Source: Anaerolineae bacterium
GTDB lineage: Bacteria; Chloroflexota; Anaerolineae; DUEN01
Assembly: GCA_025060615.1 (NCBI GenBank)
Contig: JANXBS010000004.1
Coordinates: 5,400 to 69,399 of the forward strand
Direction of reading: 5' to 3'
Length of the DNA: 64,000 bases
The notes below the pieces were generated by a model. It ran no database searches. It worked only from the letters and a program-made list of their open reading frames with translations, and had not been told where the DNA came from. Shown one piece after another: positions 4,302-47,735 of the stretch. Position 1 is the stretch's first letter; each line of letters starts with the position of its first letter. The translations under genes were made by a program, and so were the position numbers.

Positions 4302-5390
4302 TTACCTCATACACCGAGCTAAGGCCACAATATCCGATAACACCCCTGCGGCCGTGGCTTCCACCCCAGCTCCTCGTCCCTGCAGCACGAGCGGATCTGG
4401 CGTATACCATCGCGTGTGGAACTCGGCTAGGTTATCGCTGCCTCGCAGCCGGCCCAGCGGGCTGTCCACCGAGACAGGGCACAGGCCAACCACGCAGCGT
4501 CCTCCGGCGACTTCTGCCACATAACGCAGGGTCTGCCCTTTCCCTTGGGTGAATTGCATCCGATCGGCTAATTCCGCGTCGAACGCACGCAACCCGGCCA
4601 GAAACTCGTCTACCGTCCCCGATGCCAGGGATGGTGGGAACAGCGGCTCTACCGCTACGTCTGCTAATTCCAGATCCCAGTCTAGCATACGCGCCAAGAT
4701 CAAAGCCTTTCGGGCGACATCCAGCCCGCTCAGATCATCGCGCGGATCCGGTTCGGTATATCCCATCTCGTGCGCCTGATGCACCGCCACCGAAAACGGG
4801 CATCCTGACTCCAGCTGAGTCATCAGAAAACCCAGCGTGCCAGAGAGCGCCCCGGCGATACGCTTCACCTCGTCGCCGCTGCGGAGAAGAGCCTCTAGGG
4901 TGGCGATGATTGGCGTCCCCGCCCCGACGGTGGCCTCATGTCGCAGCCGTCCCGACGCAGTCAGCCGGCGAAATAAGGCCATTGGCCCCGTCAGCGGCTT
5001 CTTGTTGGCCAGCACCACGCCATAGCCGCGATCCAGCGCCATCTCCAACGCCGGTATCACCGCCTCGGTCGCCGTGCAATCCACCACGATCGCCCGGTCG
5101 CGGCCTGCCACGTCCACGATCGCGCGAGCGTCGGAGGCGTAATACCCATATGGCGTCTCCGCCAGCGGCGTGCCTTGTGCTTTGTGCTGTTCGATGAGCT
5201 GCAGCGTCTCATCGCTCAGGCCATTTGGCTCGACCACAGCCCCTTGGCTATCGGCCAACGCCACAATGGACAGATGTACCCCGTACCGTTCCGTGTGCAG
5301 CCGACGGTTGGCGATCATTTGTCGCAACAACGCCCGGCCCACCCCGCCGACGCCTAGGACGATGAGAGGTACGATATGCGCCGCGGCCAC
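4302..5390 (-). CDS. hom: Homoserine dehydrogenase
   Basis: 362 aa; N-terminal GVGGVG NAD(P) fold, LANKKPL, TVGAGTPII motifs typical of Hom. Confidence 0.9.
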   Translation of the reverse strand: MAAAHIVPLIVLGVGGVGRALLRQMIANRRLHTERYGVHLSIVALADSQGAVVEPNGLSDETLQLIEQHKAQGTPLAETPYGYYASDARAIVDVAGRDRAIVVDCTATEAVIPALEMALDRGYGVVLANKKPLTGPMALFRRLTASGRLRHEATVGAGTPIIATLEALLRSGDEVKRIAGALSGTLGFLMTQLESGCPFSVAVHQAHEMGYTEPDPRDDLSGLDVARKALILARMLDWDLELADVAVEPLFPPSLASGTVDEFLAGLRAFDAELADRMQFTQGKGQTLRYVAEVAGGRCVVGLCPVSVDSPLGRLRGSDNLAEFHTRWYTPDPLVLQGRGAGVEATAAGVLSDIVALARCMR

Positions 5391-5585: not shown

Positions 5586-6992
5586 TCATCCCTTGTCAAG
5601 TCCGAACGCGGCATGGATGCGGCGCACAGCTTCATCGCTGTCTCCCTGAGCAACGACCAGCGAGATGTTCGCCTCTGAAGACCCTTGGGCGATGGCGATG
5701 ACGTTGATGCCGGCATCCCCCAGCGCACCGAAGACCTTGGCAGCGATCCCCGGCGTGCCCTTCATGGCCGAGCCTACCACAGCTACGATAACGATGCCGT
5801 CCTCGCCGTGAATGGAGTCAATGAGCCGGCGCTCTAGCTCATAGGCCATCGCCTGACGCAGCGCTTCAAGGACACGTGCAGTATCTGCCTGGGGGATCAC
5901 AAAGCAGATGCTCTGCTCCGAGGAGGACTGCGAGATCATCAAAACGTTGGCGCCGACGCTCGCCACCGCTTGGAAGGTGCGCGCAGCGATGCCAGGGACG
6001 CCGATCATGCCCCGTCCCTCTACCGTCACCAAAGTCAGCCCCTTGATAGCGGTGATCGCCTTGACGACGTGCCCTGTGTTGTCAGCCTTGCGCACGATGC
6101 GGGTGCCCGGGTGGTCGGGATTGAACGTGTTGAGCACGTAAATCGGGATGTCCTGTTCGACAGCTGGCAAGATCGTCTTAGGGTGCAGCACCTTCGCGCC
6201 GAAGTAGGCTAGCTCAGCCGCCTCGGCATAGGAGAGCTGGGGCAACGTACGCGCTGTGGGGACGATGCGCGGGTCGGCGGTGAGTACCCCGTCCACATCC
6301 GTCCAGATCTCCACACGCTCGGCGTCCAAACAAGCTCCGACGATAGCCGCCGAGTAGTCAGAGCCGCCGCGCCCCAACGTGGTGGTGATCCCGTTTTGGG
6401 TCGCTCCGATAAAGCCCGTGACCACCGGCACCACGCCTTGCTCAATGAGGGGCAGAAGCCGCTCACGCGTGCGTTGGCGTGTAGGTTCCATCAGGGGGTT
6501 CGCGCTGCCGAAATGATCATCGGTGACGATGAACTCGCTGGCATCTACAGGTTCGGCTGGGATGCCGCGGGCATTCAACACGGCAGCCAGCAAGGGGGCG
6601 GCCAGGCGTTCGCCCAGGCTAGAGACCACGTCCAGGCCACGCGCCGTCAACTCGCCCAGGACGGCGATGCTGTGGCAGAGCTGCTCGAAGGTTGCCAGCT
6701 TCTCTTCGAACAGCCGTCCTAGCGCGGCGCGAGCCACGCCATCGGGCACGAGCTGGCCGGCCACCATTTGATGCCTAGCCAGCAACTCCGAGCGCACATC
6801 CCGATACACCTGCTCGTTCCCCTCGGCGGCGGCCTTGGCGGCCGCGATCAGGGAATTCGTAACGCCACTCATCGCTGAGGTCACCACCACCGTTTGTGGG
6901 TCCTGAGCGCGCGCCCGTTCGATGATGCTGGCAACGCGGGCGAAGGCATCGGCGTTCCCAACGGACGTCCCACCGAATTTCAAAACTCGCAT
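5586..6992 (-). CDS. lysC: Aspartate kinase (monofunctional, with C-terminal ACT domains)
   Basis: MRVLKFGGTSVGNADAF start, aspartokinase core and duplicated ACT region; GGGGAGG RBS. Confidence 0.9.
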   Translation of the reverse strand: MRVLKFGGTSVGNADAFARVASIIERARAQDPQTVVVTSAMSGVTNSLIAAAKAAAEGNEQVYRDVRSELLARHQMVAGQLVPDGVARAALGRLFEEKLATFEQLCHSIAVLGELTARGLDVVSSLGERLAAPLLAAVLNARGIPAEPVDASEFIVTDDHFGSANPLMEPTRQRTRERLLPLIEQGVVPVVTGFIGATQNGITTTLGRGGSDYSAAIVGACLDAERVEIWTDVDGVLTADPRIVPTARTLPQLSYAEAAELAYFGAKVLHPKTILPAVEQDIPIYVLNTFNPDHPGTRIVRKADNTGHVVKAITAIKGLTLVTVEGRGMIGVPGIAARTFQAVASVGANVLMISQSSSEQSICFVIPQADTARVLEALRQAMAYELERRLIDSIHGEDGIVIVAVVGSAMKGTPGIAAKVFGALGDAGINVIAIAQGSSEANISLVVAQGDSDEAVRRIHAAFGLDKG

Positions 6993-34250: not shown

Positions 34251-34445
34251 CGAAGATCACTTGCCTTGATCGATCAGCTTGTGCTCATGGGGGAAAGATG
34301 GCCCCTTCATCAGAGGAGTTGGCTCATGTTCATGAGAGCAGCCTATCCTTGGGCGAAAACGATCCACGGTAGCCCTTTCCCCGGAGAGGCTGATGTCTCT
34401 CAGCTCCAGAAGCCGCCTAGGCCATGCTATCAACATGCCCTTGGC

Positions 34446-35066
34446 TCATGGGCGAATCTCGATTCTGATTTTCCCTTCGCCGATCTGCAAATCCCTAACG
34501 TAGAAGCCGGCCGTGTACTGCGTTAGAGCCTGCTCAGCGATGCCAGGCAACATACGGGTCATCAGGTTTAAAGGCTGCAACTGCTCGACTGCCATGCGCA
34601 CTCGCCCGTTCTCGGCCCACAGCCGAATCGTAGCCTGTAAGTTGCTGATGGATAGCAATCCGTAACGCAACTGGCCTGCCTGCACCTGCACCCGTCCGCC
34701 AGTAAAGCGTACCGTCAGGTCGGTCACCTGAACCTGTCTCTGCACCTCTTCGCTAACGATGGCCTCCTCGATCATGCCCTCAGTGATCTCCCATACAATG
34801 CGATCCGGGGTGGGCGTGGCTACTGCCTCGACTTTTGGCGTAGGCGTGGGAGTGGACGTAGGCGTCGGCGTTGGCGTAGGCGGGATTGGTGTCGGCGTCG
34901 CAGTGGGTGTCCAAGTAGGGGCCACCGTTCCAGGCAGGGGAACTGGCGTGAGCGACACGAGCGCCGGGAGCTGAGGTGGCATGCAGGCAGCTATCCAGAG
35001 CGCCAACGCTACAAGCCATCCCCAACCCATCCATTTCAGCTTTAGCATGTGGCTCTTTCGTTGCAT
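34446..35066 (-). CDS. Exported/lipoprotein-like hypothetical protein with Thr/Pro-rich linker and C-terminal beta domain
   Basis: Signal peptide (…WIAAC lipobox-like), TPTATPTPIPPTPTPTPTSTPTPTP linker. Confidence 0.5.
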   Translation of the reverse strand: MQRKSHMLKLKWMGWGWLVALALWIAACMPPQLPALVSLTPVPLPGTVAPTWTPTATPTPIPPTPTPTPTSTPTPTPKVEAVATPTPDRIVWEITEGMIEEAIVSEEVQRQVQVTDLTVRFTGGRVQVQAGQLRYGLLSISNLQATIRLWAENGRVRMAVEQLQPLNLMTRMLPGIAEQALTQYTAGFYVRDLQIGEGKIRIEIRP

Positions 35067-35177
35067 CTTTTCTCACCTCTCCGCAATAGATCTCTAAATG
35101 ATTGTGAAGTTTAATGACCGAATCATCATGAAGCGTCTGGAGCGCACGTCAATTGATCGATGGGGGAAAAGGTCATC

Positions 35178-35711
35178 TCATCCTGTTGAAACAAGCGTTT
35201 GCTCGCAGGCATGACGCAGGCCACAACCTAGGCAGCGAGCGGGATCTTGATGTGAACGAGCGACCTCAACGCGCGTCAATGCTCGCCGCAGTTCAGTCAA
35301 AGTCTCTAGCACCGCTTGTCGTAGGGCATCGTCGAAGGGTACCACCAGAGTGGCATCATCGTAACACAGTAACCCATGCGAGGGTCGATGGCTAGCCCAA
35401 TCCTCGACCAGTAGACAGTAGGCAGCTAGTTGTAGAAGATGAGACGGATGAGGGTGTATAGGGCGAGGGCCAGATTTGACCTCGACCGGGATGATCTCTC
35501 TCCCATGCTTAACCAGATAGTCTGGGCGGCCGACCAATCCCCAACGCCGGCTGATGATGGACGTCTTCACGCGCCACCACCGACTCGTGTCAGCATAGAT
35601 CACGCGGCCGGCTGGCAACCCAGCAGCCCGGCTAATGCGGCTGGACCACCACAACATGAGCGCGCCTGTCACGATGAGCAGAAAGGCGATCCCCCACAAT
35701 ACAGCGGACAA
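35178..35711 (-). CDS. Membrane-anchored PD-(D/E)XK nuclease core, Cas4/DUF83 family, with C-terminal CX2CX5C cluster but no N-terminal Cys motif
   Basis: N-terminal TM helix, then GRPDYLV…IIPVEVKSG (motifs II/III), LLQLAAYCLL (QhxxY), C-terminal ARCLGCGLRHAC. Confidence 0.6.
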   Translation of the reverse strand: MSAVLWGIAFLLIVTGALMLWWSSRISRAAGLPAGRVIYADTSRWWRVKTSIISRRWGLVGRPDYLVKHGREIIPVEVKSGPRPIHPHPSHLLQLAAYCLLVEDWASHRPSHGLLCYDDATLVVPFDDALRQAVLETLTELRRALTRVEVARSHQDPARCLGCGLRHACEQTLVSTG

Positions 35712-35782
35712 GCGATTTTGCCCCGCTAATTAGATGCAGGCGATAGACGAAAAGCTCTCAAACACTGACCAGCGGCTGACCG

Positions 35783-36502
35783 CTACCCTTTCGCCGGTGG
35801 CCTCGTCCACGGTAGGATGATAATCGGTACGCCATACGGTCCCCACCGCGTAAACCACTCGGCATCCTCCGGGCGCAGGCGGATGCATCCACGGCTGGCC
35901 GGAAATGCGCCCAATGCATACATCTCCTGGTACCGCTTGACGCCGTTCTCGATCACGTAGGGAGCACCGTGGATCAAAATATGGCCCTCATGCCGGAACA
36001 GGAACCAGCCGTGATCGGCGCTCACGCCATTGGCCGAGAAAGTCCCCCAATACTCGCCGACCCGGCCCACCCAGGCCGGCGTGCGATATCCTTGATCCGG
36101 ATCCCCGCTGCTAATCGGCAGATCTGCTACGATTACACCGCCCTCCGCTACGATCATACGTTGGCGGTCCTGGTCTACCACGATAAAGCGGCCATTGGGA
36201 TCGAACCCGTTCTCTTCCACCAACGCCCGAAGGCGCGTATCGGGCGTTGGGATGGGAGTGGGGATCACAGGATCGGACATGATCCAGGCTGATGGCCGCG
36301 TGGGTGACGGCAAGAGAGTTGGCGCAGACAATGGGGTAGGAGACGGGCGTGGCGGCCGCATCCAAGGCTCGCCGGGGAAGTCAGCGCGCTCAGGAGCCGC
36401 CAGATCTTGCGAGTGGGTGAGGGTCATTACCCACCAAGCCACGAATGCAAGGGAGAACATCAGCCCCAGCCGCAGGAGTAGGCGCTTGCCCCTTCTAAAC
36501 AT
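35783..36502 (-). CDS. L,D-transpeptidase (YkuD domain) with N-terminal signal anchor
   Basis: Catalytic motif HGAPYV…SRGCIRL; start ATG overlaps the stop of the upstream 82-aa ORF (ATATGTTTAG). Confidence 0.8.
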   Translation of the reverse strand: MFRRGKRLLLRLGLMFSLAFVAWWVMTLTHSQDLAAPERADFPGEPWMRPPRPSPTPLSAPTLLPSPTRPSAWIMSDPVIPTPIPTPDTRLRALVEENGFDPNGRFIVVDQDRQRMIVAEGGVIVADLPISSGDPDQGYRTPAWVGRVGEYWGTFSANGVSADHGWFLFRHEGHILIHGAPYVIENGVKRYQEMYALGAFPASRGCIRLRPEDAEWFTRWGPYGVPIIILPWTRPPAKG

Positions 36503-36743
36503 ATCGGCCGATCCCCCAGACGATCAACACGAACGCTAGCGTGAGCAATCCATAGCCGAGAAGACGTAACTCGTATGCCAATGCGACTCGTCTCCCGTGC
36601 TGTGCGTGACGTTGAACTCCCACCCGAAGGGCTGATATGTTCTCACTTTTTATGCCGCGCACTCTTTGTAGCCACCAGGCGCGGGCACAATAAGCGTACA
36701 GGCCGATCTCACTGGCTCTGATCAGGGGTTGGTTCGTAGCCAT
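36495..36743 (-). CDS. Small protein carrying a Cas4-type N-terminal motif (…ASEIGLYAYCARAWWL…ENISALRVGVQRH) followed by a TM helix
   Basis: 82-aa ORF with GAGGAG RBS 7 nt upstream of ATG 36743. The motif resembles the Cas4 N-terminal Y-x-Y-C-P-R / EN…G…H region. Confidence 0.45.
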   Translation of the reverse strand: MATNQPLIRASEIGLYAYCARAWWLQRVRGIKSENISALRVGVQRHAQHGRRVALAYELRLLGYGLLTLAFVLIVWGIGRYV

Positions 36744-37455
36744 ACACTGGCTCCTCAGGCGATGGTAGGTTCAGCCGCCTTTCCAGGGCAGCCAATGCAG
36801 CATGCATTTGGTCCTGGCGGATCGCCATGGTCAGATCGCCGCGTGTGCGCTCTAACACGCCGCGCACCATATCGGTTGTTCGGCGTAGCCCGCCAGTGAT
36901 CGCGTCCGGGTAATCCACGGTGACGAGCTGGCTATAAACATCATCCATGACTTCTAACAGCGGTTCAGCCTCCGCTGCCTTGCCAGCTCGGATCAGGTCG
37001 AGGATATAGCGGCGGAGCTCGCCCATCGCTTCGCCTAGGCCGTTAAGGTAGGCCGCATATTCGACTTGCAGATGCTCGGGCGAGGGCAGCGGCTGGCCTT
37101 GCACCAGCGCATGAACGATAGAGGCTTCGGCCAGTTCCTTGAGGGCATCTTGAGTATAGCCAACCCAGTACAGATCGGGATAACCCGCCAGCGCCTCGCG
37201 CATTTGAGCTGCCGTCTGGCGGGCCGTCTCCAGCAGTTGGGCGGCTTCTACCCATTCGCGTCGGTGCGTGGCTCGGATGCTCAGGGAACAGTAGCGAATC
37301 AACTCGCGCGAGCGTCGCAAGGTCTCATCACGCAACTCGTTGCGGCGCTCGAAATCAGAGCGTATGGCCTCAAAGATGTCCGAGAGAGATGACAATTGGC
37401 GCCTCAATATACTGATAGCGTCAGTGATTATACCTGTAAGCCGACGACCGAGCAA
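36709..37455 (-). CDS. Translin-family protein (bacterial translin-like)
   Basis: 248 aa, helical; YLNGLGEAMGELRRYILD resembles the translin GLADLTGELMR signature; 35-nt overlap with the downstream small ORF. Confidence 0.5.
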   Translation of the reverse strand: MLGRRLTGIITDAISILRRQLSSLSDIFEAIRSDFERRNELRDETLRRSRELIRYCSLSIRATHRREWVEAAQLLETARQTAAQMREALAGYPDLYWVGYTQDALKELAEASIVHALVQGQPLPSPEHLQVEYAAYLNGLGEAMGELRRYILDLIRAGKAAEAEPLLEVMDDVYSQLVTVDYPDAITGGLRRTTDMVRGVLERTRGDLTMAIRQDQMHAALAALERRLNLPSPEEPVYGYEPTPDQSQ

Positions 37456-37702
37456 CTAGGCCCACGTTACCCACCGGTGAGCCACTCCCACCCTTGCACA
37501 AGGCCAGGCGACAGCCCATGCCCAGCCGCATTCTGCCGTCTGGCCAGCAACTGACCTATAGCCATTGCGCCTCAAACCTCTCAGGCGAGCCCGTCAAGAA
37601 GGTCACAGACAGCCATTTGAGGAATTGATTGGTAACCATATCTTACGGCCATTGGGCAGAGATAGGCGGGATAAGACAACGAACGCATGGGATAAGGGAT
37701 CC

Positions 37703-38080
37703 TTATCCAGGAGGCCAGCGCATATGACGGCCGCCGAGCAGATGCACATGGAGATGATCTATAGACTGCCCGGCCTGGGGGCCATTATTGATGACGAGTC
37801 GATACCCGGAACGGGCGATCCCCTCGCGCTCAGCCAGCTCACGAGCGACCAGCATCAGCCGCCCGGCCAGGGTGCCATCCTCCGCTCCTAGGGCTGTTAT
37901 CGCGGGGATGTGCCGGCGGGGCACGATCAAGACGTGCACGGGCGCCTGTGGGTTGATGTCTCGAAACGCCACGACCTCCTCGTCCTGGTACACGATATCG
38001 GCCGGCGCCTCACGACGCACAATCCGGCAGAACACGCAACGAGCATCGCTCAATTCGTCACCTCTATCACCTTGCCCCAC
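37703..38080 (-). CDS. HIT-family (histidine triad) hydrolase
   Basis: CVFCRI and HLHVHLLGG (HxHxHxx) motifs. Confidence 0.8.
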   Translation of the reverse strand: MGQGDRGDELSDARCVFCRIVRREAPADIVYQDEEVVAFRDINPQAPVHVLIVPRRHIPAITALGAEDGTLAGRLMLVARELAEREGIARSGYRLVINNGPQAGQSIDHLHVHLLGGRHMRWPPG

Positions 38081-39360
38081 AGGGCATCTCCCTCTAGCTG
38101 ATCCAACCGAACCGGGGTGATCCGGTTGTGCAGGCCCACATCTGCTGGCATCATCGTCAACACGCGCAGATAGTTATCCGTCAGGCCAGTCCACACGCGC
38201 TGATCAGTTCCTAACAAGGGCTGTCCATCCCCTTCCCAGAGCACTGGCCGAACCTGTCCCAACTGGGCACGGCGCACCTCGCGCCCACTGCGGGCATCTA
38301 GATCGCGCATGACTGCGCTGCGCTCACGTTTAACCGCCTCAGGGACCTGTCCTTTCATGCGTGCGGCCGCCGTGCCAGGCCTGGGTGAATACGGGAAGAC
38401 GTGAAGATGGGCAAACCGCATGGATTCCACGAACCGCAGGCTCTGCTGAAACTCTTCATCGGTCTCGCCAGGAAAGCCCACGATGATATCCGTAGTGATG
38501 GTCAGATGGGGGATACGCTCGCGGGCGCATTCCACTAAACGAGCGTAGCTTGCGGTGGTGTAGCGACGGGCCATACGGCGCAGGGTAGCGTCGCACCCGG
38601 ATTGCAAGGGCAGGTGTAGATGCGGGCACAAGCGGCCTTCGCTTTCCCGCCATAGATCGAAGAAATCCGGACCCAGGTCCCATGGCTCCAGCGAGGAAAG
38701 CCGCAGGCGAGGCAGACGAGTCTGGCGCAAGATCGCTCGCACCAGGGACGCTAAGTTGGTGCCCAGATCGCGCCCATAGGCGCCTAAATGCACGCCGGTG
38801 AGCACTGCCTCTTGATATCCCTCGGCGACCAGGGCGTTGATCTCGTTCACCACCGCAGCGAGAGGCCGGCTGCGTTCCTCGCCGCGGGCGACTGTGACGA
38901 TACAGAATGTGCAACGATTGTTGCAGCCGTCTTGCACTTTGACGAAAGCGCGGGTCCGCGTAGCAGCAAAAGGCGGACAATCCGGTCGGAACACCTCATC
39001 TGCCGGTCGATGGGGGAGTTCCTCCGCCCATAGAGCCAGCAGGTCGGCCAGCCGCTCTTTTTCGCGATTGTCCACGACCAAGCGCACTTGTGGCAGCCGC
39101 TGAACGGTGGTCGGTGCCAAGGTGGCATAACAGCCGGTGATAGCTAGGCGCGCATGAGGATTAGCCCGAGCCAGGGCGCGCGCCAGCGCGCGCGATTTCG
39201 CTTCAGCCGTCGTGGTCACTGCGCATGTGTTCAACACGCAGACATCCGCATCGCTAGGCGCCTGCACCACGTGAAGGCCGCGGGCCGAGAGCTCACGCGC
39301 CAACCGTTCCATCTCGCTAAAGTTCAAGCGACACCCCAACGTCTCCAGATATATCCGCAT
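38050..39360 (-). CDS. Radical-SAM tRNA methylthiotransferase (MiaB/MtaB family)
   Basis: N-terminal MTTase domain (LETLGCRLN, NTCAVT), radical SAM CNNRCTFC, C-terminal TRAM; 436 aa. Confidence 0.85.
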   Translation of the reverse strand: MRIYLETLGCRLNFSEMERLARELSARGLHVVQAPSDADVCVLNTCAVTTTAEAKSRALARALARANPHARLAITGCYATLAPTTVQRLPQVRLVVDNREKERLADLLALWAEELPHRPADEVFRPDCPPFAATRTRAFVKVQDGCNNRCTFCIVTVARGEERSRPLAAVVNEINALVAEGYQEAVLTGVHLGAYGRDLGTNLASLVRAILRQTRLPRLRLSSLEPWDLGPDFFDLWRESEGRLCPHLHLPLQSGCDATLRRMARRYTTASYARLVECARERIPHLTITTDIIVGFPGETDEEFQQSLRFVESMRFAHLHVFPYSPRPGTAAARMKGQVPEAVKRERSAVMRDLDARSGREVRRAQLGQVRPVLWEGDGQPLLGTDQRVWTGLTDNYLRVLTMMPADVGLHNRITPVRLDQLEGDALWGKVIEVTN

Positions 39361-45483: not shown

Positions 45484-47532
45484 CTATGGCTGCAGCGCTG
45501 CCGGCAGCGAGAGGGTCACGGCTGGCGGATTGCTCATGGGCGGATCGGCGTCGCGCACGGTGAGCCGCAAGCCGCTAGCGTCACTCGCCACATCGAACAC
45601 GATCACACCGATGGCCGTTTCCCAGGGCGCCAGTTTATGCAGCGCCAACGAGAGCAACCCATGTTGCTCTGCGTAGCGGTTGGTAGCTGCGATGTTCACC
45701 TCATACCGACGGCCTCGGCTGTCCCGCACTCCTTCGCCGAAAGTCAAACTAGCAGCGATCTGTTGATAACCACCGCTTCGGTTCACGATTCGCAATGGCA
45801 CGACTAGAAAGCGACCCTGCTCCGGCCGAAGTGTAGGCGCGCCCTCCAGCAGGTTTACGAGCGTCGGCGTGCTGACGGCGATTTCGAGATCACCGACTAC
45901 CTGAACCGGGCCGAAAGCAAGCTGAGGCGGTGTAGGCGTGGGCGTCGCTAAACGCACTTCTCCGGGCGGGTGCATAGCAATGGCCGAATCAGCGGCGACC
46001 TGTAATTGCGTGATAGACAGCCGCAATGCGCCTAGCTCGCGCGGGAGCTCGCCGGCGGTCAACCATGGCGGCGTATCCACCTGGATGGATCGCTGGCGGT
46101 CGCCTCGACGCGCGGTCAGCCGATAGGTCAGGCATGTGGGACAAGACTTGCCGAATCTATCTTGGGAGAGGTCAAAGAGGCCCTGTCGCTCTAGCTGCCC
46201 CAGCAGCGCCGCCACATCCTCGGGCCGGCCATGCACCACCCATTGCTGGGCGCGACGGCGATCTTCGATGACCACCCTTCCGTCCTGGAAGTAGCTCACC
46301 TGGCGATCCACCTGGAGGCTCTGGCTCTCGTAGGAGAAGACGACGACAGCCTCCACGGGTGATCCGGGTGTTACGATGGGAGTGCTCGTCGGGATGTGAG
46401 ATGTCGCCGTGTGGGTAGCCGTGGGCGGCTTTGCCATCGCAGTGAAGGTAGCGGTCGGCGGCACTAGTGTAAGCATGGGCGTGGGCGGTTTCGGGGTCGC
46501 CGTCGGGGAGACTGTAGGCGTGTGAGTAGGCAGTCGTGTCGCCGTAGGACTGGCTGTTGCAGTGGCTGAGGGTGTTACGGTGGGCGCGACGGTAGCCGTC
46601 AGAGTGGGGGTTGACGTTGCCGTTGGACTGGGAGTCCATGTCTCGGTAACCGACGGGGTAGGGGTGGCCGAAGGAGTCGCCGTGAGCGTTGCGGTCGGTG
46701 CCCCGGTGGGCGTCGCCGTCGGAGAGGGAGAAGGCGTTTTTGTCCCAGTGGGCGAGGGTGTAAGCGTTGGAACGGGCTTCTCCGTCTCAGTAGGGGAGGG
46801 CGTAGCCGTTGGGACAGGTGTCTCTGTCTCAGTGGGCGAGGGAGTCGCTGTAGACGTTGCGGTTGGCGTCTCCGTCTCGGTAGGCGTCGCCGTCGGAGAG
46901 GGAGGGAGTGCCTCGGTCTCGGTGGGCGACGGAGTAGCTGTCGGGACAGGCGTGAGCGTCCCGGTGGCTGAGGAGGTCGCTGTAGGCATTGCGGCTGGCG
47001 TGAATTCCTCAATCGCACTTGCTGCAGCTTCCAGCGTCATCACCGGCGCGGAGAAAGGCGAGACAGTTGCGGTGGGTGTGGCCGTCTGAGGTATCGAGGC
47101 GACCTCACCGAGCCTGATAGGAGGTATTGGTCTCATGGTAGGGGAGGGTAGGAGCGGAGTCGGCGTTGAACTGGGCTCGAAGGTAGCGGTAGGGCTCGCC
47201 GTAGCGGTTGGGCTGGGCTCAAAGGCTGCGGTGGGGCCCTCCGTAGCGCTCGGGGTTGCTGTTGGCTCAACGGTGGCTGCAGCGCTTTCCGTAACGGTAG
47301 GAGACGCCATCGCTACAGGCTGCGCCGTTGGAGATGACGGGGGGGGCGGCGTATCAGGAGGCAGGGTCAGCGTGCTCGTAGGAAGAGGCGGCGTACTTGT
47401 GAAAGTGAGCATGGGAGGCGGAGGAGTCAAACCAACTTGAGAAGCACCTCTCCCCCTGGCGATCAGCCATGCTGCCCCGATGATGAGCACAGAGAGGACA
47501 ATACCGATGATCAGCAAACGTGAGGAACTCAT
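45484..47532 (-). CDS. Signal-anchored surface protein with ~350-aa Thr/Pro/Ser/Ala-rich region and C-terminal globular domain
   Basis: ATG 47532 with GGAGG RBS; MSSSRLLIIGIVLSVLIIGAAWLIA anchor; long PTxT repeat region; immediately upstream of, and co-oriented with, the PMT-like gene. Confidence 0.6.
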   Translation of the reverse strand: MSSSRLLIIGIVLSVLIIGAAWLIARGRGASQVGLTPPPPMLTFTSTPPLPTSTLTLPPDTPPPPSSPTAQPVAMASPTVTESAAATVEPTATPSATEGPTAAFEPSPTATASPTATFEPSSTPTPLLPSPTMRPIPPIRLGEVASIPQTATPTATVSPFSAPVMTLEAAASAIEEFTPAAMPTATSSATGTLTPVPTATPSPTETEALPPSPTATPTETETPTATSTATPSPTETETPVPTATPSPTETEKPVPTLTPSPTGTKTPSPSPTATPTGAPTATLTATPSATPTPSVTETWTPSPTATSTPTLTATVAPTVTPSATATASPTATRLPTHTPTVSPTATPKPPTPMLTLVPPTATFTAMAKPPTATHTATSHIPTSTPIVTPGSPVEAVVVFSYESQSLQVDRQVSYFQDGRVVIEDRRRAQQWVVHGRPEDVAALLGQLERQGLFDLSQDRFGKSCPTCLTYRLTARRGDRQRSIQVDTPPWLTAGELPRELGALRLSITQLQVAADSAIAMHPPGEVRLATPTPTPPQLAFGPVQVVGDLEIAVSTPTLVNLLEGAPTLRPEQGRFLVVPLRIVNRSGGYQQIAASLTFGEGVRDSRGRRYEVNIAATNRYAEQHGLLSLALHKLAPWETAIGVIVFDVASDASGLRLTVRDADPPMSNPPAVTLSLPAALQP
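46777..46951. repeat. Imperfect tandem DNA repeat (period ~42-48 nt) encoding the [ATPSPTETETPVPT]n units
   Basis: Repeating tctccgtctc(a/g)gt(a/g)gg… units read in sequence. Confidence 0.4.
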
Positions 47533-47735
47533 AAATAGACCTCCGAGCCGAGGCCATCTGAAAAGCGGCGCAAGCAGCTGAACGCATTCTACTCCAGGCG
47601 TGAGGAAAAGCAAGCTAGCTAGGTGGAAGAAGAGACCCCCCTCCGCCACCTCAAAGGCCGGGGGTCAGGGGTACGCGCTCATCTGATTTCTGTCCCGCTC
47701 GCATTGTCTTCAAGGCATTTCCAAAGGGGTTCAGC

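Follow-up and report, generated by a model that had tools for sequence, protein, structure and literature searches.

To our knowledge, the nucleases of the Cas4 family and the related Fe-S nucleases (AddB, Dna2, Exo5) have always been described as single-chain domains. AddB, AdnA/AdnB, Dna2 and Exonuclease V are large soluble helicase-nucleases whose Fe-S ("iron staple") nuclease domains hold the cluster within one chain, and the purpose of the cluster in Cas4-family and related nucleases is still debated. Canonical Cas4 (PF01930/TIGR00372), represented by SSO0001 (4IC1), the type I-C protein (8D3L) and the Cas4/Cas1-fusion domain (7MI4), is marked by an N-terminal Cys, GxxxH, D...ExK, QxxxY and CX2CX5C motifs. 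The motif-I His of Cas4 is a metal ligand, His62 in SSO0001 (PMC13621843). A monophyletic group of solo-Cas4 proteins has been described in "many Chloroflexi" (Hudaiberdiev et al. 2017, PMC5704561), and ACE1 (9IAB, 9IAC) is a Cas4-family enzyme associated with an Argonaute (PMC12094033).

Here we describe a locus in which the same series of Cas4 motifs is distributed over two short open reading frames (ORFs) of 82 and 177 aa, denoted the N-half and the C-half. We consider it probable that the two encode an obligate two-subunit, membrane-tethered solo-Cas4 nuclease without a CRISPR link.

Organization of the locus

All features described lie on the minus strand of the 64-kb window (the whole stretch of DNA that was analyzed, whose numbering is used throughout). 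In the direction of transcription, the genes are a TRAX/C3PO-like gene of the translin superfamily (36709..37455, 248 aa), identified by matches to NCBIfam NF011160 and to AfTRAX in the PDB; the N-half (36495..36743, 82 aa, ATG start), identified from the ORF list and matches to Cas4 models; a YkuD-type L,D-transpeptidase gene (35783..36502, 239 aa), identified by its Pfam YkuD match; and the C-half (35178..35711, 177 aa, TTG start), identified by TIGR00372, Pfam Cas_Cas4, PDDEXK_1 and PDB matches. The three ORFs on which the preliminary description was based, the two halves and the transpeptidase, are all present on this strand, and their key codons were checked individually.

The stop of the TRAX/C3PO-like gene overlaps the start of the N-half by 35 nt, and the TRAX/C3PO-like gene is probably the first member of the same operon. 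Between the N-half and the transpeptidase gene there is an 8-nt overlap of stop and start (ATGTTTAG), which makes translational coupling plausible at this junction. The transpeptidase and the C-half are separated by 71 nt, and coupling by overlap is absent there. Thus the earlier claim of a complete, translationally coupled transpeptidase gene between the halves holds as to completeness and is plausible as to coupling on the N-half side, with no overlap to support it on the C-half side. A scan of positions 34300-38300 for promoters and terminators gave matches at chance level only.

Two proteins with complementary Cas4 homology

The C-half contains the PD-(D/E)XK core motifs GRPDYLV (D64), EVK (E77, K79) and QLAAY (Q94, Y98), followed by H154 and C160-x2-C163-x5-C169. 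The triad D64, E77 and K79 is encoded at 35475..35522, and the predicted C-terminal Fe-S ligands C160, C163 and C169 at 35205..35234. The protein passes the curated Cas4 thresholds, with 67.1 bits against TIGR00372 (positions 55-179 of 180; cut-off 65) and 31.0 bits against Pfam Cas_Cas4 (cut-off 22.7), and PDDEXK_1 is also matched. A search of the PDB with the C-half family profile returned Cas4 chain 8d3l_I (residues 102-199) as the top match, and the Cas4 structures 7mi4 and 4r5q were also found. D64, E77, K79, Q94, Y98, H154, C160, C163 and C169 are invariant in 44/44 homologues from loci retrieved via the N-half, and dN/dS is ~0.1. Lengths range from 169 to 205 aa among the best 120 C-half homologues.

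One further cysteine of the C-half, C99, is kept in 38/44 of the loci retrieved via the N-half (G, L or F in the other 6) and is present in 123/129 full C-half sequences. As an obligatory in-cis fourth ligand it was rejected, being substituted in 6/44 independent sequences; judged from the alignment, it could act as an alternative cluster ligand.

The N-half has a predicted cytosolic part (residues ~1-55) followed by a C-terminal transmembrane (TM) helix and a 3-residue tail. The cytosolic part contains C19, within YAYCARAWWL, and G42-x3-H46. C19 (codon 36687..36689) is predicted to be the first Fe-S ligand and aligns to the N-terminal Cys of 8d3l_I; H46 (codon 36606..36608) is a predicted metal ligand and, by homology, would be equivalent to His62 of SSO0001. 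C19, W23, G42, H46 and H49 are invariant in 53/53 homologues from loci retrieved via the C-half, with dN/dS of ~0.2. The N-half family comprises 1163 clusters, and the best 150 of the 1163 are all 73-133 aa long.

Individual matches of the N-half to Cas4 models are weak. It scores 14.3 bits against TIGR00372 (E 0.027, below threshold; profile positions 3-44 of 180) and matches four Cas4 models of PADLOC (E 0.001-0.007). Its best single E-values are ~1e-3 in small libraries and 0.28 against the PDB, and a curated Cas4 threshold is never reached. In all five Cas4 models, however, the matched region is N-terminal (positions 3-44 to 3-56). In the PDB, the N-half family profile finds Cas4 chain 8d3l_I first (residues 6-58), and the alignment pairs the Cys, the His and the G42-x3-H46 motif of the N-half with the Cys, the His and the G-x3-H of that chain. 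The HMM comparison proposed for both ORFs is therefore clear for the C-half and sub-threshold, though consistent in position, for the N-half.

When the two halves were fused with both hydrophobic helices deleted, TIGR00372 gave one alignment covering positions 3-179 of 180 with 81.3 bits, and the scores of the two halves were additive (14.3 + 67.1 vs 81.3). One PDB chain, 8d3l_I, tops both family profiles with all four Cys positions aligned. The preliminary description had read the 82-aa ORF as a Cas4 N-terminal signature with the first Fe-S Cys ahead of a TM helix, and the 177-aa ORF as a TM helix ahead of a PD-(D/E)XK core and CX2CX5C, so that the four Cys ligands of one cluster would be divided over two polypeptides. 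This reading is borne out: the four-Cys Fe-S motif of Cas4 is complete across the two chains (C19 on the N-half; C160, C163 and C169 on the C-half), and the four are aligned to Cas4 and invariant. The homology and the fold match suggest that the four converge on one cluster. As the N-half also carries the invariant motif-I His H46, the catalytic site is predicted to be composite too, and not the Fe-S cluster alone.

The two halves are separate conserved genes, complementary to each other with respect to Cas4, and under purifying selection. We infer from the sequences that the subunits assemble, share a cluster, sit in the membrane with the topology given below and have nuclease activity.

Relation to described nucleases

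Together the two halves have the features of a Cas4/DUF83 protein, namely a score above the profile threshold, the D/ExK and QxxxY motifs, the four-Cys motif and the motif-I His. They differ from canonical Cas4 in four respects. Instead of one soluble chain of ~160-220 aa, the nuclease consists of two polypeptides from two genes; two TM helices, one in each, stand in place of a loop of ~10 residues (profile positions 44-55); the locus is away from cas1, cas2 and a CRISPR array; and the predicted positions of the cluster and of the metal site are between subunits. Compared with AddB, AdnA/AdnB, Dna2 and Exonuclease V, the staple here would link two small membrane proteins. ACE1 is similar in being a Cas4-family nuclease outside CRISPR that is partnered with an adjacently encoded nucleic-acid enzyme. 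It differs in being a soluble single chain with a pAgo partner, whereas the neighbor of the split nuclease is TRAX/C3PO-like and the partnership is putative.

The C-half family, which databases name Cas4, is very likely the solo-Cas4 group of Chloroflexi described previously (PMC5704561). When that paper was searched for the relevant terms, neither a split nor a separate N-terminal gene, TM helices or a translin-like neighbor came up. In the literature searched, on Cas4 in connection with membrane anchoring, Chloroflexi or translin, we found no description of this two-piece membrane architecture.

Predicted membrane helices and structure

Hydrophobic segments were scored by the Kyte-Doolittle mean over 19 residues, and TM helices and topology were derived from hydropathy and the positive-inside rule. 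Means exceed 2.1 in both halves, here and in almost every homologue. The N-half helix (residues ~59-79, 36507..36569) scores 2.12, with 2.05-3.28 in its homologues and one outlier (L059), and the C-half helix (residues ~4-23, 35643..35702) scores 2.28. The helix is C-terminal in every N-half except L059, and N-terminal in every C-half whose start can be placed. A cluster of Arg and Lys follows the C-half helix in all homologues, and the basic residues lie on the predicted cytosolic sides. The predicted topology is thus opposite in the two proteins, with the N-terminus cytoplasmic and the C-terminus outside in the N-half, and the N-terminus outside and the C-terminus cytoplasmic in the C-half.

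We modeled the pair with AF2 as a covalent concatenation of the N-half and the C-half with unpaired alignment rows, which is not a heterodimer prediction (pLDDT 84.5, pTM 0.72). Both TM segments are helical in the model, which contains a helical hairpin formed by helices 36-79 and 85-111 (concatenated numbering); residues 51-80 belong to the continuous helix 36-79 (pLDDT 81-93). N-half residues 8-9 are modeled as beta structure, and the C-half strands are their only possible partners, so that in this concatenation the N-half appears packed against the C-half sheet. The top Foldseek match of the model is 8d3l.

Distribution of the two genes

C-half relatives are encoded by the genomes of at least 575 species, almost exclusively from the class Anaerolineae of the Chloroflexota. 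The usual state in these relatives is two separate neighboring genes, each with a TM helix. The 129 loci with a full-length C-half comprise 99 separate N/C pairs and 30 loci with no N-half in reach; of the pairs, 73 are adjacent, 18 have a transpeptidase gene between them and 8 have another insert. The question raised earlier, whether the nuclease is contiguous elsewhere, can thus be answered: in relatives it is normally two adjacent genes (73/129), and it was found as a single ORF once.

That fused ORF (P0158) is the only one among the best 120 matches to the concatenated halves. The contig, from a metagenome, is 1216 bp long; the protein has 236 aa and is the one member of its cluster. It has one hydrophobic segment of ~24 residues, and with a single membrane pass both soluble parts cannot be cytoplasmic. 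We set it aside as an exception that may have arisen by deletion or misassembly.

The orphan C-halves (30/129, about a quarter of C-half loci) form a near-monophyletic clade from Caldilineaceae, Litorilinea, Thermoflexales and Roseilinea. They retain an intact set of catalytic residues and have no N-half within 6 kb; the C-half may therefore work alone in these lineages. N-halves without a linked C-half also occur on long contigs (L168, from GCA_964437445.1, and L169, L144 and L147), so the orphan C-halves may instead have a partner elsewhere in the genome. Members of the orphan clade are found, for example, in Litorilinea aerophila (GCA_006569185.2), in Caldilineaceae (OZ242006.1) and on JAWKOU010000001.1.

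The L,D-transpeptidase gene between the halves

The transpeptidase scores 61.1 bits against Pfam YkuD (PF03734; cut-off 23.4, E 2.4e-16). It consists of an N-terminal membrane anchor, a Pro-rich linker and a catalytic domain with the motif SRGCIRL at residues 203-209, in agreement with the S-x-G-C-[IV]-R pattern of YkuD. The transpeptidase at this junction is orthologous across 17 loci with the catalytic motif kept in 17/17, and its divergence follows that of the C-half (Spearman 0.58). The order trl / N-half / YkuD / C-half is also found in a Caldilineales genome. In other lineages the junction is occupied by a HEAT-like or a YycE-like gene, and in one locus (L096) only a 36-aa remnant of the transpeptidase is left between two intact nuclease halves. 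No repeats or mobile-element features were found flanking the transpeptidase gene.

Since the split occurs without a transpeptidase in most loci, other genes are inserted in some, and L096 retains a remnant, the halves were most likely already two genes when the transpeptidase gene was inserted between them. An insertion event had been offered as one explanation of the locus. An insertion did take place, but the 73 adjacent pairs and the variety of inserts argue against it as the origin of the split. We therefore view the transpeptidase as a lineage-specific passenger and not as the cause of the split; it would be a functional periplasmic enzyme that has settled at this junction in one or a few lineages.

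Genomic context and the TRAX/C3PO-like gene

No cas genes or CRISPR array had been noticed nearby in the preliminary description, and wider scans agree. The 64-kb window yielded no CRISPR-like array, and cas domains are absent both from the 10 largest neighboring ORFs and from the listed contexts of related loci. The surrounding genes have metabolic or housekeeping functions. A defence island was considered and rejected; PADLOC gave only Cas4-type matches, weak DruK-like matches and one marginal PDC-S01 match (C-half), and no defence neighbor.

The 248-aa protein encoded upstream of the N-half scores 300.2 bits against NCBIfam NF011160 (cut-off 291) and 20.2 against Pfam Translin (PF01997), below the cut-off of 25.9. 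It matches AfTRAX (3zc1) with an E-value of 5e-24 over 183 residues (29-211), including the GELRRY and D-x2-RG-x2-ERT stretches, and NEQ131 with an E-value of 1e-8. Its nearest relatives are the archaeal TRAX-like C3PO proteins (AfTRAX 3ZC0/3ZC1, NeTrax 5JR9). A gene of this type lies directly upstream of the N-half in 21/49 genome loci and 50/60 metagenome loci. The preliminary description had not noted this conserved neighbor. Bacterial members of the translin/TRAX superfamily have been reported to occur in Chloroflexi alone (PMC5100593). In the searchable literature, no linkage of TRAX-like C3PO to the Cas4 family is reported, and "Cas4" and "translin" are not mentioned together in any paper.

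Proposed mechanism and alternative explanations

The two-subunit membrane nuclease, already among the options first raised for this locus, is the explanation we favor, given the complementary homology, the invariant residues, the purifying selection and the conserved adjacency of the two genes. The N-half would be a tail-anchored protein that exposes ~55 residues with C19 and H46 to the cytosol, crosses the membrane once and ends in a 3-residue external tail. The C-half would be inserted in the opposite direction, with a short external N-terminus, the TM helix, a positively charged cytosolic stretch, the nuclease core and CX2CX5C. The two antiparallel helices would pair in the membrane like a hairpin, and the cytosolic parts would fold into a single Cas4 domain, in which one Cys of the N-half and three of the C-half ligate the Fe-S cluster and the His of the N-half completes the metal site. 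With the cluster and the metal site shared in this way, the nuclease should be active only when both subunits are present, and only at the cytoplasmic face of the membrane.

Could the C-half instead be a self-sufficient, truncated membrane nuclease, with the 82-aa protein, descended from a Cas4 N-terminus or only similar to one, acting separately as a regulator, inhibitor or assembly factor and contributing nothing to the active site or the cluster? The near-monophyletic orphan loci keep all catalytic residues and C99, which could serve as the fourth ligand in cis and is widely conserved; according to the literature some Cas4 proteins are active without a cluster, and the N-half matches to Cas4 models are individually weak. 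We nevertheless judge this explanation unlikely. Invariance in the N-half falls precisely on the positions of the Cas4 ligands, C19 and G42-x3-H46, its score adds to that of the C-half in a continuous Cas4 alignment, and the AF2 concatenation places it on the C-half sheet. In 6 of the 44 sequences G, L or F stands in place of C99, but C19 shows no substitution, and the unlinked N-halves on long contigs leave room for distant partners of the orphans.

The intervening gene suggests other explanations. If the transpeptidase were a functional part of the system, the locus could encode an envelope-spanning module that couples, for example, cell-wall status or phage attack to the nuclease; the 8-nt overlap with the N-half, the orthology, conserved motif and co-divergence of the transpeptidase in 17 loci, and the same gene order in a Caldilineales genome fit such a module. 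It is nonetheless improbable, as 73 of the 99 pairs have no intervening gene, unrelated cytosolic HEAT-like or YycE-like genes take the same position elsewhere, L096 has lost the transpeptidase and kept both halves, and the transpeptidase catalytic domain is predicted to lie across the membrane from the nuclease domain. The order of N-terminal part, foreign gene and C-terminal part also resembles an insertional disruption, by which the two ORFs would be decaying pseudogene fragments of a broken cas4 gene. We find this hardly credible: purifying selection acts on both pieces (dN/dS 0.08-0.25, with dS around or above 1), hundreds of species have them as separate conserved genes, in most cases with no transpeptidase, and their catalytic and ligand residues are all invariant. 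In addition, each piece has its own conserved TM helix, which ordinary Cas4 lacks, and the insert is free of surrounding repeats and mobile-element features.

Returning to the two-subunit nuclease, its biological role is the least certain part of our proposal. Vertical inheritance across a class, housekeeping neighbors and the frequent TRAX/C3PO-like neighbor lead us to favor, as a conjecture, a resident role in nucleic-acid end-processing or degradation at the membrane over membership of a mobile defence island. A more ambitious proposal, which we put forward tentatively and with more doubt than conviction, is that an obligate heterodimer, with a subunit-bridging Fe-S cluster that controls its assembly, acts together with the TRAX/C3PO-like nuclease as an unrecognized, vertically inherited system of membrane nucleic-acid processing or surveillance in Anaerolineae. 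If so, the pair would act as a naturally occurring "split-enzyme" switch on the inner membrane face, with activity dependent on the cluster, and one possible role would be to act on DNA or RNA that enters the cell or is handled at the envelope.

A cluster and a metal site assembled from two polypeptides would provide a natural test of the structural "staple" idea for Fe-S clusters, and the split nuclease may be an example of cluster-dependent subunit assembly. Membrane anchoring is not typical of Cas4 proteins and suggests that this one works at the envelope, and the frequent linkage to members of the sole bacterial translin/TRAX branch offers a lead on the roles of both solo-Cas4 and bacterial C3PO-like proteins. 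The split also affects annotation. In hundreds of genomes the C-half is annotated as "CRISPR-associated protein Cas4", a name at odds with its lack of a CRISPR association and with its probable incompleteness on its own, while the partner N-half gene is labeled "hypothetical protein" in NCBI records or is left uncalled.

Organization of the locus

Four minus-strand ORFs form a tight run from 35178 to 37455 of the window. The first encodes a 248-aa translin/TRAX-like protein (36709..37455, −), and its stop overlaps by 35 nt the start of an 82-aa ORF, the N-half (36495..36743, −). The N-half stop in turn overlaps by 8 nt (ATGTTTAG) the start of a YkuD L,D-transpeptidase gene (35783..36502, −, 239 aa), which is separated by 71 nt from the TTG start of a 177-aa ORF, the C-half (35178..35711, −). 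The preliminary description took the transpeptidase gene to be translationally coupled; the 8-nt overlap agrees with coupling to the N-half, and the 71-nt gap leaves no coupling by overlap to the C-half. A scan for consensus promoters and terminators returned matches at chance level and nothing more.

The run is surrounded by metabolic or housekeeping genes (proline dehydrogenase, GDPD, diacylglycerol-kinase-like, malic enzyme/PTA, MFS transporter, HIT, MiaB-like methylthiotransferase, aconitase and histidine kinase), and no CRISPR-like array was found across the 64 kb, as noted earlier for the vicinity of these genes. Identical proteins are present in an NCBI MAG labelled 'Anaerolineae bacterium', where the C-half is annotated as 'CRISPR-associated protein Cas4' and the N-half as 'hypothetical protein'. 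Directly 3′ of the C-half lies a 206-aa ORF (34446..35066, −) whose product has a hydrophobic segment at its N terminus and an extended Pro/Thr-rich tract, where an 18-nt tandem repeat (34839..34882) lies; it has no Pfam family and adjoins the module in few relatives only. An imperfect 42-nt tandem repeat (46732..46842, 2.6 copies, 73% matches) lies within the minus-strand ORF 45484..47649.

The two ORFs resemble complementary parts of one Cas4 domain

Profile searches with both ORFs gave matches to different ends of Cas4. The C-half scored 67.1 bits against TIGR00372 (curated threshold 65) and also exceeded the Pfam Cas_Cas4 threshold, covering only profile positions 55-179 of 180. The N-half matched positions 3-44 with a weak score (14.3 bits, E 0.027), as well as the N-termini of four PADLOC Cas4 models (E 0.001-0.007). 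When N-half residues 1-55 were joined to C-half residues 29-177, removing both hydrophobic helices, the fusion gave a single continuous HMMER alignment to TIGR00372 (positions 3-179); its 81.3 bits correspond to the two individual scores added together. Family profiles built from 37 N-half and 35 C-half homologues had the same best PDB match, chain 8d3l_I of type I-C Cas4, which aligned with the N-half profile at residues 6-58 (E 0.28) and with the C-half profile at residues 102-199 (E 3.7e-7). In these alignments YAYCARAWWL of the N-half is paired with FQFCKRQWAL, G-x3-H with G-x3-H, and the CX2CX5C of the C-half with its counterpart. The Cas4 homology of the two ORFs is thus complementary and specific to position, with a statistically weak contribution when the N-half is taken by itself. 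This bears out the earlier assignment of the Cas4 nuclease core and CX2CX5C to the 177-aa ORF and, more weakly, of the Cas4 N-terminus to the 82-aa ORF.

Because the peptide patterns of our collection scans contain some of the key residues, invariance was counted only in independently retrieved sets. C19, W23, G42, H46 and H49 are present in 53/53 N-halves from loci found via the C-half, and D64, E77, K79, Q94, Y98, H154, C160, C163 and C169 in 44/44 C-halves found via the N-half. The four proposed cysteine ligands of the predicted cluster, C19 plus the CX2CX5C, are therefore divided between two polypeptides as originally described, and all are invariant. C99, which follows the QxxxY tyrosine, is retained in 38/44 of the same C-halves and is otherwise G, L or F; it therefore cannot be mandatory as a fourth ligand. 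C19, on the partner polypeptide, shows no substitution at all. In the alignment, H46 falls on the conserved histidine of Cas4 motif I, a metal ligand in SSO0001 (His62; PMC13621843), so the catalytic site, and not the Fe-S cluster alone, is predicted to be a composite of both halves. Among the window and close relatives, wherever dS was estimable, Nei-Gojobori dN/dS ranges over 0.17-0.25 (N-half) and 0.08-0.17 (C-half), which marks both ORFs as genuine genes under constraint.

An AF2 model of the concatenated pair, computed with an alignment of both families, has a mean pLDDT of 84.5 and a pTM of 0.72, and extends a long helical hairpin (36-79 and 85-111, pLDDT mostly 81-94) out of an alpha/beta domain. 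Structure comparison gave the highest score to the Cas4 domain of Cas4/Cas1 (7mi4; 16.7, aligned length 165), followed by Type I-C Cas4 (8d3l; 14.0, 166), Dna2 (12.5, 172), AdnA (9np6; 11.3, 166) and SSO0001 (4ic1; 9.5, 137), and Foldseek agreed (top match 8d3l, E 7e-7). In the top matches more residues are aligned than the C-half has in its soluble part (~148), so some of the N-half occupies a Cas4-like position in the model; the sole beta-structure of the N-half, residues 8-9, must there pair with C-half strands.

The split is the normal state of the family

A scan of one genome per species revealed a C-half relative in at least 575 genomes, almost all Chloroflexota (Anaerolineales, Caldilineales, Thermoflexales, Roseilinea). 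The best 120 C-half homologues measure 169-205 aa. Searching 1.84 billion cluster representatives in full (HMMER, N-half profile) yielded 1163 clusters, 437 at E<=1e-10, and the best 150 are all 73-133 aa. Among 129 loci with a full-length C-half, the N-half lies directly upstream in 73, the transpeptidase gene intervenes in 18, another insert intervenes in 8, and in 30 the N-half is not within reach. In most related loci the halves are thus separate genes lying next to each other. Directly upstream N-halves in genome loci are spaced by ~−80 to +250 nt, often with a 1-4-nt overlap or a single stop codon between the genes. The 80 metagenome loci found via the N-half comprise 41 adjacent pairs, 11 spaced pairs, 24 cut by a contig end and 4 with no C-half despite >1.5 kb of downstream sequence; none is fused.

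With one outlier (L059), all N-halves have a hydrophobic helix at the C terminus, 3-8 residues from the end; all C-halves with a placeable start open with such a helix, and an Arg/Lys-rich stretch comes next. By the positive-inside rule, both soluble parts would lie in the cytosol and the helices would run antiparallel, as in a hairpin whose external loop has been cut. Among the best 120 matches to the concatenated halves, a single protein was fused, P0158 (L005 347..1057, 236 aa, on a 1216-bp ENA contig). Its one hydrophobic segment (~24 residues) has Arg clusters on both sides, a pattern that does not fit a once-spanning helix; we treat the protein as an exception, perhaps a variant with a deletion or an artefact of assembly.

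Genes inserted at the junction

The preliminary description considered an insertion event as one explanation of the split. Insertions have occurred at the junction: at least three unrelated genes have occupied it, and most simply they entered the intergenic junction of a gene that had been split beforehand, which argues against insertion as the origin of the split. The transpeptidase combines an N-terminal anchor and a Pro-rich linker with an SRGCIRL catalytic motif, and S-x-G-C-[IV]-R is kept in 17/17 junction orthologues. Its pairwise identities (40-99%) indicate about the same divergence as those of the C-half (43-99%) and track them (Spearman 0.58, non-independent pairs), so it is a long-established and functional occupant of the junction, inherited vertically in part of the family. 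The trl (TRAX-like)/N-half/YkuD/C-half order recurs in a Caldilineales genome, transpeptidase-bearing loci form ~3 groups on a short-protein NJ tree, and no repeats flank the insert in the window. In L096 the halves are separated only by a 36-aa remnant of the transpeptidase 3′ end (4775..4882; CDGCIRLHPDDARWFTAWGPRGVPVI, E 6e-10), evidence of loss by deletion.

A different Anaerolineae subclade carries a conserved HEAT-like protein of ~210 aa at the same junction (L024, L028, L059, L064, L065, L071, L080; e.g. L064 337..969), its HEAT-repeat similarity being weak (Pfam HEAT_2, E 0.014). L037 retains a 67-aa remnant of it and L065 has an additional 152-aa SdrD_B/GEVED-like ORF. In L038 a 128-aa YycE-like/glyoxalase-fold protein lies between the halves (5593..5979; Pfam YycE-like_N and _C, E ~1e-25). 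L117 and L118 (N-half at ~2400 and ~2040, C-half at ~5130 and ~5640) have 1.6-2.5 kb more sequence between the halves, after the transpeptidase gene.

Linkage to a TRAX-like gene

Within the translin superfamily, the 248-aa upstream protein is TRAX-like (NF011160, 300 bits); it matches AfTRAX (3zc1) over 183 residues (E 5e-24), with the GELRRY and D-x2-RG-x2-ERT stretches conserved. TRAX-like proteins form C3PO nucleases in archaea and eukaryotes. Among bacteria, reports of them are confined to Chloroflexi (PMC5100593). In 21/49 species-level loci a homologue stops no more than a few dozen nt from the N-half start, and the same holds for 50/60 metagenome loci whose upstream sequence is long enough; the orphan C-halves, those without an N-half within 6 kb, have none nearby. 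As this linkage is frequent yet not universal, a functional partnership with the split nuclease is a hypothesis, and no paper in the literature searched combined Cas4 and translin.

A proposed two-subunit, membrane-tethered Cas4-type nuclease

The best-supported mechanism is the bona fide two-subunit membrane nuclease already put forward as one possibility. The two helices would pair in the membrane and the cytosolic parts would complete one RecB-like fold, the small subunit contributing one Cys and one His, and the large subunit the remaining ligands and the D/E/K triad. The gene structure, synteny, complementary homology, residue invariance, purifying selection and predicted fold are established, and subunit assembly, a shared cluster, membrane topology and nuclease activity are predictions. 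Sequence, motifs and predicted fold place the pair in the solo type of the Cas4 family (DUF83); it differs from customary Cas4 in that it is not a single soluble chain and has no CRISPR association. Hudaiberdiev et al. 2017 (PMC5704561) report a monophyletic solo-Cas4 group in many Chloroflexi, which is very likely this family.

The split, the separate N-terminal gene, the membrane anchors and the TRAX linkage are not described in the literature searched, so that a clear and widespread architecture has gone unreported there; it would imply an Fe-S 'staple' between subunits at a membrane. The enzymology is probably conventional. Class-wide vertical inheritance and the housekeeping neighborhood favor a resident role over mobile defence, and we tentatively suggest end-processing or degradation of nucleic acids at the inner membrane face, possibly with the C3PO-like nuclease.

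Unlinked halves

The 30 loci lacking an N-half are nearly monophyletic (Caldilineaceae, Litorilinea, some Thermoflexales and Roseilinea). These orphan C-halves (L003, L009-L013, L018, L021, L022, L026, L027, L031, L032, L034, L039, L043, L046, L050, L053, L058, L069, L073, L074, L082 and others) keep every catalytic and Cys residue, and both the N-half and the TRAX-like gene are absent within 6 kb. Conversely, two N-halves on long contigs have no C-half within 10 kb (L168, GCA_964437445.1, 8409..10240; L169, 5628..5915), and L144 and L147 have none in 4.8-5.8 kb of downstream sequence. Unlinked genes of both kinds fit two independently encoded subunits assembling in trans. A rival reading, in which the C-half is sufficient by itself, draws its main support from the orphan C-halves, whose N-half would have to be encoded elsewhere in the same genome.

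L168 keeps an SSB/DUF3467/215-aa gene/N-half order, followed by Sua5; in L001 and L166 the module likewise comes after SSB and DUF3467. The C-half of L032 (CALOFL010000005.1), from a MAG labelled 'Candidatus Krumholzibacteriia', falls in the orphan clade beside 'uncultured Chloroflexia' L011 and L022, a placement that may reflect mis-binning or horizontal transfer.
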